Shown: one piece after another, positions 1 through 4,650 of the stretch | How the letters are laid out: the number at the start of each line of letters is the position of its first letter | Numbering within the stretch: the first letter of the stretch is position 1 | Source of the DNA: Patescibacteria group bacterium | GTDB taxonomy: Bacteria; Patescibacteriota; Patescibacteriia; Magasanikbacterales; GWA2-37-8 | DNA length: 4,650 nt | Reading direction: 5' to 3' | Assembly: GCA_004321885.1 (NCBI GenBank) | Contig: SCQK01000012.1 | Coordinates: forward strand, 1-4,650 | The notes under the pieces: generated by a model | The model's input: only the letters and a program-made list of their open reading frames with translations | Told to the model about the DNA's origin: nothing | The model's database searches: none | Program-made: the position numbers and the translations under genes

Positions 1-120
1 GATGTTTGATACGTCCCAAACAAAACGTAACAAACCTTGTCCTGATTCACGAACGCGAAAGGTCGAAAAACTTACTTATTGAAACGAGAAAGAGTGTCTT
101 AAAAAAGGGGTACTTGCCAA
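1..120. repeat. Left copy of a perfect 120-bp inverted repeat (terminal inverted repeat of the window); may extend beyond the window edge
   Basis: Bases 1-120 are the exact reverse complement of 4531-4650; I checked all twelve 10-mers by hand. Identity breaks at 121 (g, versus a expected from 4530). By eye the repeat is AT-rich and A-tract-rich and unlike its inner flanks. Confidence 0.95.
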
Positions 121-433
121 GGAGCTCGATGATTCGAGAGTGGAAGTTGGGTGGGGTATTCAGCTTATAGCTTTCGCTCCGCCAACCTCTGACTGGTTCA
201 TCGTGACCAATCTCTCCTGCTCCGCGCAGATCTTTTTTATCCAGCTCGAGACCTGTCTTTGCTTCGTAAAACTCGAGTAGCCAATCGTGCCGGCCGATTT
301 CGTTGTTCCCCACAAGGAGGAGCTCCGAGTCGCCGTCAACGAAGTATAGGAACTTATGGCCGCGATGCTTTGACGGATCGTAAGCGCACACTTCAATATC
401 GCGACCGTCATAGCAAACAAAAAAACGCTTCAT
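47..433 (-). CDS. Hypothetical 128-aa soluble protein; last gene of the murJ operon, translationally coupled. Its C-terminal ~24 aa and stop codon are encoded by the left repeat copy.
   Basis: ATG at 431-433 is preceded by a strong SD: minus-strand UAAGGAGAAAAGCA-AUG, where UAA is the murJ stop and GGAG is 7 nt upstream. The ORF is 128 codons. Codons from about residue 105 onward lie inside the repeat (positions <=120); the stop is at 44-46. No family recognised from the sequence alone. Confidence 0.6.
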   Translation of the reverse strand: MKRFFVCYDGRDIEVCAYDPSKHRGHKFLYFVDGDSELLLVGNNEIGRHDWLLEFYEAKTGLELDKKDLRGAGEIGHDEPVRGWRSESYKLNTPPNFHSRIIELLGKYPFFKTLFLVSISKFFDLSRS

Positions 434-444
434 TGCTTTTCTCC

Positions 445-2091
445 TTACTCATTGTTTGTTATAGCCTCGGTGGTAGGCAGGTTCTTCACCCGCAACCACC
501 GACGGGTCAAGGCGTTTTTGAGCTGTAATAATTCAGGCACCTTTAAGATATAACACAAGAGGCAATAAATTGCCAGACCGGCCAGACCCGCCACCGCTCC
601 TTGTCCGAAAATGCCCCAAAAATACCTTTGGTCAAAAATTTCCGCCAGCGGGTATTTCAAAAATTGCACGGCCAGGGCCATGGGAACGGTCGCGATAATA
701 ATTTTGTAAACGGAGGAGGTGAATGAAAGGGGCTGCTTCGCTTCGCTCGCAGTGACAATAGCGGGTGACCGACTTTTCAGCTCACTTCGCAGGGCCAGCG
801 ACAGGGCGGTGAAGTTTACCACAGCCGCGATGGAAAAGGCCAAAGCCAATCCGGCCACACATAGGGGTTTCATTAAAAGCAAAGAGGCGATGATGCCGAT
901 AAGTTCGGAAATAACGCCAATGACAAACGGGGTTTTGGTATTGGACAAGGCGTAGAAGGCGCGGGCGAGCAGGGGAATGAGCGCCTGGGCGAACAAACTC
1001 AACGCGAACAAAGCCAGGGCGTCGGCTGTGGCAATGGTGGCGGTCCAGTTAAATTCGCCGGTGCCCAGCACCACACGCACGATTTGCGCGCGCAACAGCA
1101 TCATTATTATGGAAAGCGGAACAATCAAAAAAATTATCTGGCGCATGGTGGCCGACAGATTTTTCACGAATTCTACGTGGTCGTTTTTGGCCGCGGCCGC
1201 CGACAGCACGGGAAACACCGCCATGGCAAACGGGATGCCGAAGATGCCGATGGGCACGGCCTGCAAATTGCTCGCGAAATTAAAAATTGCCACACTGCCG
1301 GCCGGCAAAAGCGACGCTAACATGGTGATAATCACCAAGTTAAGTTGGCTGACAGCTAAGCCCATGGTGCGCGGGGCCATCAGCTTGGCCACCGAGAGGG
1401 TATTTTTTTCACGCGGTCTGAAAATCCATTGCCAGCGCCAGCCGTTGGCGTAGGCGCTATACAGTTGAAGCAAAAAATGCATGGCCGCGCCCAAGACCAC
1501 GCCCCAGGCCAAGCCGGAGATGCCGATGGCCGGCACCAAAGCGACCGCGCCCACGATAATCCCCAAGTTGTAAAATATCGGGGCGATGGAGTACATGAAA
1601 AAACTGCGCAGTGATTGTAAGATACCGCCAAGCACCATGGACAGCCCGAGCAAAAAAGTGGAGCCAAACATGATGCGAGTGAAACTTATTACCAGCTCGC
1701 GGCTGAAGCCGTTAAACCCGGGCGCGATAATCGCGGCCAGGGCCGGGGTGAAAATTACACCGAGCGCGCTTAGGGCAAGAAGCGAAACAGCCGTAATGTT
1801 CAAAATGTTATTGGCCAGTTTCCAGGCCGGACTTTTGTCTTCGCCTTCGTGAAAAAGGCGGGTAAAGGTGGGAATAAAGGCGGCGCTAAGCGCGCCCACG
1901 ATGAGCAGGTTATAAATCAGGTCCGGTACTTTGAAAGCGGCGTAGTAGGCGTCCATTATCGGGCCCGCGCCAAAGTAGTGCGCAAAAATACGGTCGCGAA
2001 AAAGGCCGATGAGGCGGCTGATAAGAGTGGTGCCGGCGATAATAATAGCGGCACCGGTGATGGTTTTTGATTGGCCGTTGAGGAATGACAT
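445..2091 (-). CDS. murJ: Lipid II flippase MurJ (MviN), MOP superfamily, about 549 aa
   Basis: Long hydrophobic polytopic ORF. The N-terminal region RLIGLFRDRIFAHYFGAGPIMDAYYAAFKVPDLIYNLL..AFIP matches the conserved MurJ/MviN N-terminus (E. coli [30 protein letters not shown]). Start assigned to ATG 2089-2091 (MSFLNGQ...). The 17-codon upstream extension in the ORF track (to 2142) would translate the structured palindromic element and begins with TTG, so I rejected it. Stop is TAA at 445-447. Confidence 0.9.
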   Translation of the reverse strand: MSFLNGQSKTITGAAIIIAGTTLISRLIGLFRDRIFAHYFGAGPIMDAYYAAFKVPDLIYNLLIVGALSAAFIPTFTRLFHEGEDKSPAWKLANNILNITAVSLLALSALGVIFTPALAAIIAPGFNGFSRELVISFTRIMFGSTFLLGLSMVLGGILQSLRSFFMYSIAPIFYNLGIIVGAVALVPAIGISGLAWGVVLGAAMHFLLQLYSAYANGWRWQWIFRPREKNTLSVAKLMAPRTMGLAVSQLNLVIITMLASLLPAGSVAIFNFASNLQAVPIGIFGIPFAMAVFPVLSAAAAKNDHVEFVKNLSATMRQIIFLIVPLSIIMMLLRAQIVRVVLGTGEFNWTATIATADALALFALSLFAQALIPLLARAFYALSNTKTPFVIGVISELIGIIASLLLMKPLCVAGLALAFSIAAVVNFTALSLALRSELKSRSPAIVTASEAKQPLSFTSSVYKIIIATVPMALAVQFLKYPLAEIFDQRYFWGIFGQGAVAGLAGLAIYCLLCYILKVPELLQLKNALTRRWLRVKNLPTTEAITNNE

Positions 2092-2181
2092 GTCATTGCG
2101 AGGTCGCGTAAGCGACCGAAGCAATCCCATCCGTAATCGCAAGGAATTGCTTCGTCGGCCTACGGCCTCCTCGCAATGACA
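2091..2181 (-). promoter_or_regulatory. Nested-palindrome structured element filling the whole intergenic gap upstream of murJ. Candidates: cis-regulatory RNA or leader structure; REP- or MITE-like palindromic element.
   Basis: Outer 13-bp perfect inverted repeat: TGTCATTGCGAGG (2091-2103) with CCTCGCAATGACA (2169-2181). It encloses three hairpins with 0-2 nt linkers: TCGC-GTAA-GCGA (2104-2115); CGAAGCAAT (2117-2125) with ATTGCTTCG (2146-2154), a 9-bp stem around a 20-nt interior; and GGCC-TAC-GGCC (2157-2167). The upstream gene's stop (TAG, 2182-2184) and the murJ ATG (2089-2091) abut the element directly. Confidence 0.55.
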
Positions 2182-2883
2182 CTACGATGGAGACAAATTC
2201 ACCGTCAGTATGGCCGTGGCCGTGCCTTGTGTGGCTGTTCCCGCGCTACTGGCGAACATGGAGCCGGAAATCTCGTCTTTGCTGAACGAAAATTGTTTGA
2301 CAGTGTCGCTCTCGCTTTCCAAATCAATTTTATAGCCTTTTTTTTGCAGTTCCACTTTGTAGTAGCCGATGACAAAATACGGCTCGGCGTTCATATTCTT
2401 CCATTCTATCTGCACCGTGTCGCGATGGTCGGAAACCGGCGACGCAATCATTTTCCAGATGTTCTTGGCCAGGGCCAGCCGCCCAGCGCCCGCGTCTGTG
2501 GAAGTCGGCGTTAGTTGGTCTTTGTTCATGGCCAAAAATAGGGGAGATAAAATCACTTTTGGAAAAAAGGCCGCGATTTCCACGCCGCGGTTTTTGTATT
2601 TGCCCGAGACAAAAGTGATGCGCTCTATATTGTCTTTGTCGTAAAGAGGAATGTCTTGGGGAAAATTTTCCGGTACGGATTTCAAATTTTGCGGACCGCT
2701 GCCCATGGACAGGCGCAAGACAATCGCGCCGACGATGATGACAATCAAAAGACAACCGCAGCCGCCGAGGCAGGCGCGTTTTATTGAAGAAAAGGCCGAG
2801 TATTTCTTGCTGATTTCTCCAATCGGCGGTTCAACAATTTCCACGTCCTTAATAAGGTCGCGTCGCATAAATACAATTGTCAT
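2182..2883 (-). CDS. Hypothetical single-pass membrane protein (233 aa): short cytoplasmic N-terminus, one TM helix, about 170-aa extracytoplasmic domain. First gene of the murJ operon.
   Basis: ORF of 233 codons with one strongly hydrophobic segment (CLLIVIIVGAIVL) after a K/R-containing N-terminus. The start could be ATG 2881-2883 or the in-frame ATG six codons downstream (2866-2868). No clear SD, and a hairpin overlaps the first ATG. No family recognised. Confidence 0.65.
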   Translation of the reverse strand: MTIVFMRRDLIKDVEIVEPPIGEISKKYSAFSSIKRACLGGCGCLLIVIIVGAIVLRLSMGSGPQNLKSVPENFPQDIPLYDKDNIERITFVSGKYKNRGVEIAAFFPKVILSPLFLAMNKDQLTPTSTDAGAGRLALAKNIWKMIASPVSDHRDTVQIEWKNMNAEPYFVIGYYKVELQKKGYKIDLESESDTVKQFSFSKDEISGSMFASSAGTATQGTATAILTVNLSPS

Positions 2884-2902
2884 CCTGAACTAGTTTCAGG
2901 AT
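2882..2902 (-). promoter_or_regulatory. 8-bp stem hairpin overlapping the first ATG of the 233-aa gene (candidate translational control element)
   Basis: A-TCCTGAA-CTAGT-TTCAGGA-T forms a perfect 8-bp stem with a 5-nt loop. The start codon at 2881-2883 lies at the edge of the stem. Confidence 0.3.
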
Positions 2903-2916
2903 CTCAGGTCGCATTT

Positions 2917-2945
2917 ATTGTAGCATGTTTCCCTCCCCTTGACAA
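2917..2945 (-). promoter_or_regulatory. Sigma70-like promoter for the 233-aa gene and murJ operon (-35 TTGTCA, 17-nt spacer, -10 TACAAT on the minus strand)
   Basis: Plus-strand coordinates: -10 is ATTGTA at 2917-2922 (reverse complement TACAAT). The spacer 2923-2939 is 17 nt. -35 is TGACAA at 2940-2945 (reverse complement TTGTCA). The predicted transcription start near 2910 gives a short leader containing the start-codon hairpin. Confidence 0.4.
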
Positions 2946-2966
2946 AAGTTTTATCCGTGGTATTAT
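2939..2966 (+). promoter_or_regulatory. Strong sigma70-like plus-strand promoter with an extended -10 (TTGACA, 16-nt spacer, TGgTATTAT). It is divergent from the operon promoter, with overlapping -35 elements.
   Basis: TTGACA at 2939-2944 is a perfect -35. TG at 2958-2959 and TATTAT at 2961-2966 form an extended -10. No plus-strand ORF lies downstream; the transcript would be non-coding. Confidence 0.45.
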
Positions 2967-2973
2967 TAGTTTA

Positions 2974-3030
2974 GAAAAAGACTTTCGGCCGTGGTTCATA
3001 TACCACAAACTGGCGGAAAGCCTTTTTTGT
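2974..3030 (+). ncRNA. Candidate small non-coding RNA or 3'UTR-antisense transcript driven by the plus-strand promoter
   Basis: The predicted start is near 2974. Hairpin GTGGT-TCATAT-ACCAC (2991-3006) can be extended by GCC/GGC pairing (2988-2990 with 3012-3014). A short GGC-GGAAA-GCC stem follows, then TTTTTTGTTTT at 3023-3033. The region has no ATG and no ORF. The stems are weak, so termination is uncertain. If the transcript reads through, it is antisense to the 137-aa gene. Confidence 0.25.
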
Positions 3031-3031
3031 T

Positions 3032-3445
3032 TTATTCATCAGGAAATACCGAGATTAGCCATTTCTGATTATTCTTTTTATTTTGTTTGATTTGAACGAG
3101 AAATTTTTCTCTGTCTTTAGTTACGCCGACGAAACGGTGTAATATTTCAGATTTATCGTTCGGGTTATCTTTGGAAATCGGATCAAAGCGGCAATTTTGA
3201 ATTAGTTCAATTGCGCAAGGGTAATATTTCACTCGTCTAATTTTATCTCTGTGATTAAGTTTCGTGTGCAGGTGTTGCCAAAAAAGTTCTAAAAAGATTT
3301 TTTCTTTGTTGAAATACGCCGAACGGATATACGGACGGCGTTTTGTTTTTCTCTTTATTTTTTGGTATTGCGCGAATGCGTGTTTGTAAACTTCGCTGAA
3401 ATTCGTGCCTGACAATTTTGATGATTTGACTTTGTAAACCTCCAT
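3032..3445 (-). CDS. Hypothetical 137-aa lysine/arginine-rich basic protein encoded by AT-rich sequence; function unknown. Possibilities are nucleic-acid binding, a toxin-like protein or a phage-like protein.
   Basis: A 137-codon ORF in AT-rich DNA, where stop codons are expected to be frequent, so it is unlikely to be spurious. There is a single ATG candidate at 3443-3445 with no SD. A putative extended -10 about 10 nt upstream suggests a leaderless or near-leaderless mRNA. No conserved catalytic motif recognised. I looked for an HEPN Rx4-6H motif and found none. Confidence 0.55.
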   Translation of the reverse strand: MEVYKVKSSKLSGTNFSEVYKHAFAQYQKIKRKTKRRPYIRSAYFNKEKIFLELFWQHLHTKLNHRDKIRRVKYYPCAIELIQNCRFDPISKDNPNDKSEILHRFVGVTKDREKFLVQIKQNKKNNQKWLISVFPDE

Positions 3446-3454
3446 AGTGCGGAT

Positions 3455-3463
3455 ATTTTATCA
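3455..3463 (-). promoter_or_regulatory. Extended -10 element (TGATAAAAT on the minus strand) about 10 nt upstream of the 137-aa gene ATG; possible leaderless start
   Basis: Minus strand reads cGTGATAAAATatccgcactATG. The TGnTAAAAT pattern matches an extended -10. The -35 is poor. Confidence 0.3.
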
Positions 3464-3535
3464 CGATAAGGGATAAAATAAAAGATTCGCGGGTTCGCAC
3501 AAAAAAACCGGCGTGAGGTGCTGGTTGCGCAATTT

Positions 3536-4189
3536 TCACGGTTCCGATATTCGCCAGCCAACATTTGGCACTTGTACGAACATCATAGATTCAGATTCGT
3601 CGTCCGCGTAGACCTCGTAGAATCTTGCTTCACCAAGATCCTTGGTTATTTTCATCTCGGCTCGATTGAGCCAGCCAGCAATATCTGCAGTGCCGCCGGC
3701 GGAATGGATGGTTTGGAAAAGTTCGTTGCATCGACGTCGGCTGTCTTGGTCGGGCGCACAGGCCGCTAGCACCAAGTTTAGATCTTGCGCCTGCCAACCG
3801 GCGGCATACAACTTGAACGACTCCTCAGGCGATGCCAATGGAAGCAGTGCGCGTTCTTGTAATTTGGATATCCAGACAAATTTTATTACCCACAAATCTA
3901 ATATTGGGTCAATGTAGGCAGAACGCGGGTTTGCTTTTACTACTTCGGCGCCGTATGGCATTGCCATCAGTTTTGTTTTACCGGCTTCTAAATCAATTGG
4001 ATAACCCGGTGAGGAATATCCGATAACGGAGCCATTGATCCTATCGCGCGTGTCGTTTATAAAAACATAATAATCTGGCATGATTAGGAATATTTTTAAG
4101 ATGCCAATAATTAATAGTATTAAAATTATAAATAGTGTGCTTATTAAAAGTTTTTTGAATCTCCTCATATGACATGAAGTTAACTTCAT
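3536..4189 (-). CDS. Hypothetical 217-aa protein with an N-terminal signal-anchor or TM helix and a C-terminal domain of roughly 170 aa predicted outside the cytoplasm; function unknown
   Basis: ATG at 4187-4189 is preceded by AAGAGGU, 11 nt upstream. An alternative in-frame ATG lies at 4166-4168. The N-terminus MKLTSCHMRRFKK is followed by a hydrophobic stretch of about 25 residues (LLISTLFIILILLIIGILKIFLIM). By eye the gene is GC-mosaic: the anchor region is very AT-rich and the C-terminal domain about half GC. Stop is TGA at 3536-3538. Confidence 0.65.
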   Translation of the reverse strand: MKLTSCHMRRFKKLLISTLFIILILLIIGILKIFLIMPDYYVFINDTRDRINGSVIGYSSPGYPIDLEAGKTKLMAMPYGAEVVKANPRSAYIDPILDLWVIKFVWISKLQERALLPLASPEESFKLYAAGWQAQDLNLVLAACAPDQDSRRRCNELFQTIHSAGGTADIAGWLNRAEMKITKDLGEARFYEVYADDESESMMFVQVPNVGWRISEP

Positions 4190-4224
4190 TCTTAAATTTA
4201 CCTCTTTTGTGGAAATTTGTAAAC

Positions 4225-4245
4225 AAAAAACCGACTGGGTGTCGG
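4225..4245 (-). terminator. Rho-independent terminator on the minus strand (CCGAC-ACCCA-GUCGG followed by UUUUUUGUUU)
   Basis: Plus strand reads AAAAAA (4225-4230), CCGAC (4231-4235), TGGGT (4236-4240), GTCGG (4241-4245). On the minus strand this is a 5-bp GC-rich stem with a 5-nt loop followed directly by six U residues. It sits between the GC-rich fragment and the 217-aa gene. Confidence 0.5.
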
Positions 4246-4354
4246 GGGACCGCCTGTATAGCCATCAGGCTGGCTGCCACAGGACGTGGCGAGGGAAGGT
4301 GCTTACAGCGAGGCGAAGAAGCCGGGCAGGGCCGGCGCTATCTCGCGGGATGAG

Positions 4355-4650
4355 TTAGACCCGCTTTGGGGTTTGGAGCGGCACGCCCACTTCCACAATG
4401 ATGGCACAGTACCACGGATCGAACATCATGATCCGTGTGATGGCCTGTTCCACCTCGGCCCGTTCCATGCCTTCCGCCACCACCTTGCCGAGGCGCACCG
4501 CCATCCAGCGGGATGCCGGGTTGTGTGGCTTTGGCAAGTACCCCTTTTTTAAGACACTCTTTCTCGTTTCAATAAGTAAGTTTTTCGACCTTTCGCGTTC
4601 GTGAATCAGGACAAGGTTTGTTACGTTTTGTTTGGGACGTATCAAACATC
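4355..4650 (-). CDS. 3' portion of a GC-rich gene; product unknown. The frame stays open through the right repeat copy to the window edge. It is either a gene continuing beyond the window or a remnant truncated at the repeat junction.
   Basis: Stop TAA at 4355-4357. The reading frame is open from 4358 to 4650. The first codon in the ORF track is TTG at 4643-4645, which is not a real start. The non-repeat part (4358-4530, ...ASRWMAVRLGKVVAEGMERAEVEQAITRIMMFDPWYCAIIVEVGVPLQTPKRV) looks GC-rich by eye. The repeat part is AT-rich, and there is a sharp compositional break at 4530/4531. Confidence 0.35.
   Translation of the reverse strand, partial: CLIRPKQNVTNLVLIHERERSKNLLIETRKSVLKKGYLPKPHNPASRWMAVRLGKVVAEGMERAEVEQAITRIMMFDPWYCAIIVEVGVPLQTPKRV
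4531..4650. repeat. Right copy of the perfect 120-bp inverted repeat
   Basis: Exact reverse complement of 1-120 (120/120). Identity ends at 4530. Confidence 0.95.

Follow-up and report, generated by a model that had tools for sequence, protein, structure and literature searches.

In assemblies built on vertex-centred de Bruijn graphs adjacent contigs share an overlap of k-1 nucleotides (nt), which is 120 at k = 121, and a collapsed node, such as the one formed by the small single-copy region of chloroplasts, appears as a unique segment carrying k-1 repeat bases in opposite orientation at its two ends. Among mobile and invertible elements, composite transposons such as Tn5 and Tn10 present the same repeat end to both sides of a central segment, the insertion sequences (IS) of the IS200/IS605 type insert 3' of a fixed tetra- or pentanucleotide without a target-site duplication, and the G segment of Mu and the C segment of P1 lie between inverted repeats which are themselves inside reading frames. 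The stretch of DNA analyzed here (the window) is the complete contig SCQK01000012.1 of a Patescibacteria group bacterium, 4650 nt long, whose two ends are formed by an inverted repeat, hereafter designated R. Each inner edge of R falls within an open reading frame (ORF), one encoding a protein of 128 amino acids (aa) at the left and one fused to a fragment rich in guanine plus cytosine (GC) at the right. We consider it likely that R is a real repeat and that the breakpoints in both genes are real; R is probably also mobile, a point on which our confidence is lower than on the repeat and the breakpoints. The phenomenon itself is ordinary, a contig ending in a collapsed repeat that has truncated two small accessory genes.

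The arms at 1-120 and 4531-4650 are 100% complementary over 120 nt and are placed exactly at both ends of the window, identity ending at position 121, where a G stands against an A (the complement of T4530). These are the two copies of R found in the window, in inverted orientation, and both junctions interrupt host sequence. Runs SRR8426587-98 are metagenomes of Oak Ridge groundwater, for which DNA was extracted directly from filters without multiple displacement amplification (MDA) or other whole-genome amplification and assembled by IDBA-UD with the settings --mink 31 --maxk 121 --step 10 (PMC7137472). Only one Logan contig was found to carry the strain of the window, the k = 31 contig SRR8426592_150265 (L001), which is identical to window positions 91-4228 with 0 mismatches and therefore starts exactly 30 nt (k-1) inside R. 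Since this contig reaches k-1 nucleotides into R, the graph of the reads must branch at 120|121. In a graph simulation, any inverted repeat of at least 120 nt placed around 121-4530 produced the exact 4650-nt unitig at k = 121, and the same simulation at k = 31 produced a contig starting at position 91. The repeat length of 120 nt appears to be set by the assembler, being k-1, and not by biology, and we infer that the window derives from the published k = 121 IDBA-UD assembly. With the ends cut at k-1, 120 nt is the minimum length of R, whose outer edge appears to be the cut made by the assembler, and the complete identity of the two arms is a consequence of the way in which the graph is constructed.

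At the left junction, a first-pass annotation of this DNA had claimed that the 128-aa gene enters the repeat at position 120 and takes its last residues and its stop from it. This is confirmed: the junction 120|121 splits codon L105 (C|TT), and residues 106-128 (GKYPFFKTLFLVSISKFFDLSRS) together with the stop codon are encoded by R. A word-based search for relatives of this protein was empty and an exhaustive HMMER search was required, which recovered 23 relatives, mostly of 102-116 aa, 20 of which were aligned. Homology within the family spans residues 1-105/107, and past the invariant L105 18 of the 20 homologues continue for 2-6 residues (median 4) and the remaining two for 9 and 27, compared with 23 in the protein of the window. 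The R-encoded tail, which would have been expected among the homologues if the repeat were native coding sequence, is present in none of the 20, in a test of low power, given that the family ends a few residues later anyway and that one homologue has a tail of 27 aa. An AlphaFold2 model of the 128-aa protein displays a predicted local distance difference test (pLDDT) score of 95-98 for residues 1-106 and of 55-60 for the tail. R stands in place of the final few codons and the stop codon of an accessory gene of ~110 aa, and the 23-aa tail is meaningless. The ~110-aa family is uncharacterized; its fold is possibly like that of a phosphohistidine phosphatase, and its profile gave no match against the sequences of the PDB.

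The right junction is marked by a change of composition, GC content passing from 70% (4451-4530) to 40% (4531-4570), with a third-codon-position GC of 0.79 against 0.47 and a Fisher p = 1.7e-4 for 120 nt per side. Thus, the compositional break perceived by eye in the first-pass annotation stands at the right, and it is weaker at the left, where the step from 53% to 40% gives p = 0.09 in the same test. The in-frame fusion of the GC-rich minus-strand fragment to the repeat was also found as described, in an ORF at 4355-4645 encoding 96 aa. The sole homologue found for the fragment is P0001, a protein of 119 aa encoded in contig L002 of the sister run SRR8426596, with 86% identity at the amino acid level and 90% at the nucleotide level. 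P0001 possesses a 70-aa N-terminus, with a ribosome-binding site, which is unrelated to the 38 residues encoded by R, and this is the answer to the question of whether a full-length homologue would include the repeat-encoded N-terminal region. The fragment is devoid of the ~70 N-terminal codons, of the ribosome-binding site and of the promoter, and DNA homology to L002 is restricted to window positions 4356-4535, ending 5 nt (GCCAA/TTGGC) inside R. One in six of the reading frames of R is open throughout, and fusion in frame is at the level expected by chance, a phase match having a probability of 1 in 3. The fused 96-aa ORF is unlikely to be a functional gene: a gene of the 119-aa type has lost its promoter and its first ~70 codons to R, and a dead 3' fragment of it remains. 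With family homology ending at the left junction and an unrelated N-terminus in the homologue at the right, the proposal that both junctions are breakpoints inside genes is supported.

The plus-strand ORF at 4398-4604 ends with the same 23 residues as the 128-aa ORF, as had been predicted by symmetry, and this sharing is a mechanical consequence of R being an inverted repeat. The plus-strand ORF runs antisense to the frame for which a protein homologue exists, and since L002 has the same antisense frame open as well, its openness is uninformative. Neither the 23-aa tail common to the two ORFs nor the in-frame fusion is a protein module; both arise as side effects of the inverted repeat. Relatives of P0001 were not found in viral contigs, and exact-protein look-ups returned no record of the 128-, 96-, 233- and 137-aa ORFs or of a guessed 67-aa partial product.

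Read in the direction from host to R, both copies display the pentanucleotide TTGGC followed by a common end, AAGTACCCCTTTTTT... At the right copy, TTGGC is also found at the aligned position of L002 (...CGCCGCCAAAGCCACGC, against ...ACTTGCCAAAGCCACAC in the reverse complement of the window), a coincidence expected by chance in about 1 in 1000 cases, and judging from this alignment the TTGGC next to the right copy looks native to the interrupted gene. At the left copy the motif encodes L-G and is compatible with the family consensus ELLG (G in 8 of the 20 homologues), a weak indication. The pentanucleotide could have served as a target sequence or as a recombination microhomology, or it could belong to a target-site duplication. 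We may hypothesize that an undescribed mobile element of Candidatus Magasanikbacteria has R as its left end, that it would insert in a fixed orientation directly 3' of TTGGC, in the manner of IS200/IS605 elements at their own targets, and that two inverted copies of it would bracket the MurJ region, a proposal which in this specific form we hold as tentative and on balance doubtful. A separate observation concerns the inner tip of R (101-120 and 4531-4550), which reads A6-GGGGTAC-TTGCCAA and resembles the 5' half of an intrinsic terminator, with an A-run, a stem arm and a loop; the partner arm GTACCCC followed by T6 is present only in the other copy of R, and R may be cut within a terminator hairpin. 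The idea that R is half of a bidirectional terminator was dropped, as the partner arm is missing at both junctions.

In the explanation that we favor, the window would be one de Bruijn-graph contig from the chromosome of a member of Candidatus Magasanikbacteria (Patescibacteria) in Oak Ridge groundwater, in which the unique segment 121-4530 is bounded on each side, in opposite orientation, by R. Exactly 120 nt of R would be retained per end due to the maximum k of 121 in IDBA-UD and the overlap of k-1 between neighbors. R would represent one extremity of a repeated and probably mobile element that has inserted twice, each time with this end towards the unique segment and possibly adjoining a TTGGC target, and both copies would be in one genome in the order R, unique segment, inverted R. 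By the logic of the graph, a contig that runs the full k-1 nucleotides into R at both ends has no competing continuation at usable depth, and since a native continuation of the P0001-like gene would end the contig near 4535, a rare chimeric junction is disfavored. The earlier suggestion that such junctions are expected either where an inserted or repeated element meets host DNA or where a chimera forms can thus be narrowed, the repeated element being favored and the chimera disfavored. An origin in two strains each contributing one junction was considered and rejected, because the own continuation of either strain would create a branch and cut the contig before R.

Several observations weigh against this explanation. 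The window shows just one end of R, and no feature of R positively marks mobility. R is without any relative across all the collections searched: exact searches with 25-30-mers of R gave 0 matches in a viral collection (three tried), in JGI metagenomes (two) and in GTDB genomes (one), R stayed unmatched when the entire window was compared by blastn with phage and plasmid records, and blastn of R against 68 related loci gave no match. Likewise, R has no known RNA family in Rfam (E up to 1), a tRNA search was also empty, and none of its six frames has a protein match, with no detectable transposase in the visible 120 nt. Positions 1-125 fold as DNA no more favorably than shuffled sequences do (z = -0.08), and a 10-bp stem at 4-35 lies at least 85 nt from the tip. 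The tie to the IDBA-UD assembly rests on the identity to the Logan contig of one run and on the k-1 match. Finally, the left junction could be native, given the one homologue with a tail of 27 aa and a left GC step that is not significant.

A native left junction is the starting point of an alternative in which R is the ordinary DNA downstream of the 128-aa gene, the long tail is native, and a single fold-back inverted duplication occurred in vivo: a template switch at the 5-nt TTGGC would have placed a reversed copy of R and of the sequence beyond it alongside position 4530, so that the P0001-like gene alone was truncated. The 5-nt microhomology at the right junction, the long-tailed member of the 128-aa family, the non-significant left GC step, the lack of resemblance of R to any mobile element and the similarity of its GC content (39%) to that of the spacer at 2884-3031 (40.5%) are all in its favor. 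Nevertheless, it demands that the boundary should by chance hit within 1-2 codons of the end of the family homology, for which we estimate a probability of ~1-2%, when 18 of the 20 homologues end 2-6 aa past that point. Large near-palindromic duplications are moreover unstable, and a streamlined genome would not be expected to have such a structure as its sole configuration, and we therefore regard a fold-back origin as unlikely. Still less probable, in our view, is a chimera formed in the library or during assembly, in which the right junction or both would be artefactual and the genome would contain a single R. Junction microhomology, as represented here by TTGGC, is typical of template-switch chimeras, and the right junction is unconfirmed by a second assembly, the Logan contig stopping at 4228 and the guessed partial protein not being on record. 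However, an overlap of 5 nt is too short to produce a mis-join at k values of 31 and above, and a native continuation at normal depth would stop the k = 121 contig near 4535 and not 120 nt into R. In addition, the branch of the k = 31 graph exactly at 120|121 implies that R has at least two right-hand neighbors in the reads, and the DNA was extracted directly, without MDA (PMC7137472).

The arrangement of inverted repeats on both sides of a 4.4-kb segment would also be compatible with a site-specific invertible segment, R providing the recombination sites and an outside ORF reading through R acquiring alternative C-termini. One frame of R, read inward, is open throughout, and in one orientation it is fused to a C-terminal half that comes from a real protein family. 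Against this reading, which we judge very improbable, no recombinase is found among the proteins of the window, no more than 16 antisense residues result from the other orientation, the core genes within the segment have signals of their own, and the N-terminus of P0001 bears no relation to the R-encoded peptide. As the sequence begins and ends precisely with a perfect inverted repeat, it might further be taken for a small linear replicon or virus captured in full, with genuine terminal inverted repeats of 120 bp, a reading that can in practice be excluded: the repeat is exactly as long as the k-1 overlap of the assembler, the branch in the k = 31 graph falls on the inner edge of R, the content is MurJ and a conserved chromosomal neighbor with no replication or structural genes, and neither a phage-family match nor any hit in the viral, phage or plasmid collections was obtained.

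Table 1. Coordinates of R, its junctions and the reading frames of the window.
Feature	Position	Strand	Remarks
Window	1-4650		Complete contig; the terminal 120 nt at both ends are the inverted repeat R
Left copy of R	1-120		Inner 120 nt only; 39% GC; outer edge is the contig end
Right copy of R, inverted	4531-4650		
Unique chromosomal segment between the R copies	121-4530		4410 nt
128-aa ORF	47-433	minus	
Native part of the small accessory gene (128-aa ORF)	121-433	minus	Residues 1-104 and first base of L105
R-encoded 23-aa tail and stop of the 128-aa ORF	47-120	minus	
GCCAA, inner tip of left R copy	116-120	plus	Minus-strand TTGGC is the end of L105 plus G106
MurJ lipid II flippase, chromosomal core gene	445-2091 or 445-2142	minus	Pfam PF03023, E = 2e-91
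233-aa gene, conserved upstream partner of MurJ	2182-2883	minus	
Orphan ORF, 137 aa	3032-3445	minus	
Orphan ORF, 217 aa		minus	Separated from the right-hand fragment by the hairpin/promoter-like region 4195-4245
Terminator-like hairpin (4245-4231), then promoter-like site (4223-4195)	4195-4245	minus	k = 31 assembly branches at 4228
3' fragment of P0001-like gene	4355-4530	minus	~57 codons and stop
Fused 96-aa ORF	4355-4645	minus	38 R-encoded residues and GC-rich gene fragment
Antisense ORF with R-encoded tail	4398-4604	plus	
TTGGC, inner tip of right R copy	4531-4535	plus	

The credible genes of the window are all encoded in the minus strand (Table 1), and GC content along the contig varies from 21% to 67%. 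MurJ shows 57-72% identity to the closest MurJ proteins found in Candidatus Magasanikbacteria/Patescibacteria, the matches beginning at query residue 18, and homology supports the ATG at 2091 as its start. In 60 retrieved loci of Magasanikbacteria/Patescibacteria (tblastn) the 233-aa gene is located directly upstream of MurJ, and the presence of MurJ with its syntenic neighbor identifies the segment 121-4530 as chromosomal. In contrast to this pair, the 128-aa, 137-aa and 217-aa genes and the fragment have no counterpart among 68 related loci, which places R in variable regions; in the closest relative, other small variable genes flank the conserved 233-aa/MurJ pair. The accessory proteins gave no match in scans of Pfam, NCBIfam, PHROGs and PADLOC. 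The 137-aa ORF, with 35% GC and rich in lysine, is not called in the Logan annotation of the identical contig and, having no family match and no counterpart in the related loci, is of uncertain coding status.

A nested palindromic element of 91 nt (2091-2181) fills the interval from the stop codon of the 233-aa gene to the ATG of MurJ at 2091; it has perfectly complementary outer arms (2091-2103/2169-2181), inner arms at 2107-2133/2138-2164 and an RNA fold of -48 kcal/mol. It is missing from the related Magasanikbacteria loci and provides the codons for the 17 N-terminal residues of the 565-aa MurJ ORF as listed, and it may be a small insertion similar to a miniature inverted-repeat transposable element (MITE). 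Upstream of the 217-aa gene, a module with terminator- and promoter-like features (4173-4303) is common to contig L002 (1-55, 1028-1066): L002 starts with an identical 30-mer, the reverse complement of window 4199-4228, followed by a different gene of 88 aa, and its 3' end matches window 4303-4264, while the k = 31 contig from the sample of the window itself breaks at 4228. This suggests that the module is a repeated intergenic unit placed ahead of different small genes, in a cassette-like manner. Within 300 nt of this region GC content jumps from 21% (4051-4200, comprising the codons of the N-terminal membrane anchor of the 217-aa gene and its 5' region) to 67% (4229-4354), the latter stretch being apparently non-coding and downstream of the gene fragment. 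Compared with L002, a 68-aa gene is missing between the stop codon of the fragment and the 4303-4264 module.

The window provides a caution for the interpretation of similar contigs, in that a perfect terminal inverted repeat with a length of k-1 indicates a collapsed repeat in the assembly graph. Terminal repeats of this length should not be read as the ends of linear or viral genomes, and the ORF fusions that result from them should not be annotated as proteins. At the same time, the repeat pinpoints two junctions created by rearrangement within the variable DNA that surrounds the conserved 233-aa/MurJ pair, in a streamlined genome of the candidate phyla radiation. If R is indeed a mobile element, it is an uncharacterized one.

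Among the known systems, the invertible G and C segments of Mu and P1 resemble the window in that a segment of kilobase scale lies between inverted repeats which are inside reading frames, but here there is no invertase in the window, the second orientation gives no meaningful fusion, and housekeeping genes are found inside the segment. Composite transposons such as Tn5 and Tn10 share with it the abutment of the same repeat end, inverted, on both sides of a central segment, and the junctions described here interrupt host ORFs; unlike in those transposons, no transposase, no terminal repeats internal to the element and no outer ends are contained in the window, and the central segment consists of syntenic core chromosomal genes, which are unlikely to move as a unit. 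In the case of IS200/IS605, the succession of host DNA, TTGGC and element end at both copies of R resembles insertion 3' of a fixed pentanucleotide, the right-copy TTGGC appearing native to the target gene and the left-hand evidence being weak; in contrast to those elements, neither tnpA/tnpB nor a significant subterminal hairpin is visible, and we know of no element with a TTGGC target. A collapsed node of the kind represented by the chloroplast small single-copy region differs from the window in its origin, which here is not a plastid, and in its repeat, which here is at least 120 nt long and matches nothing in the collections searched, but it has the same form: a unique segment that carries k-1 bases of a repeat, in opposite orientation, at its two ends.

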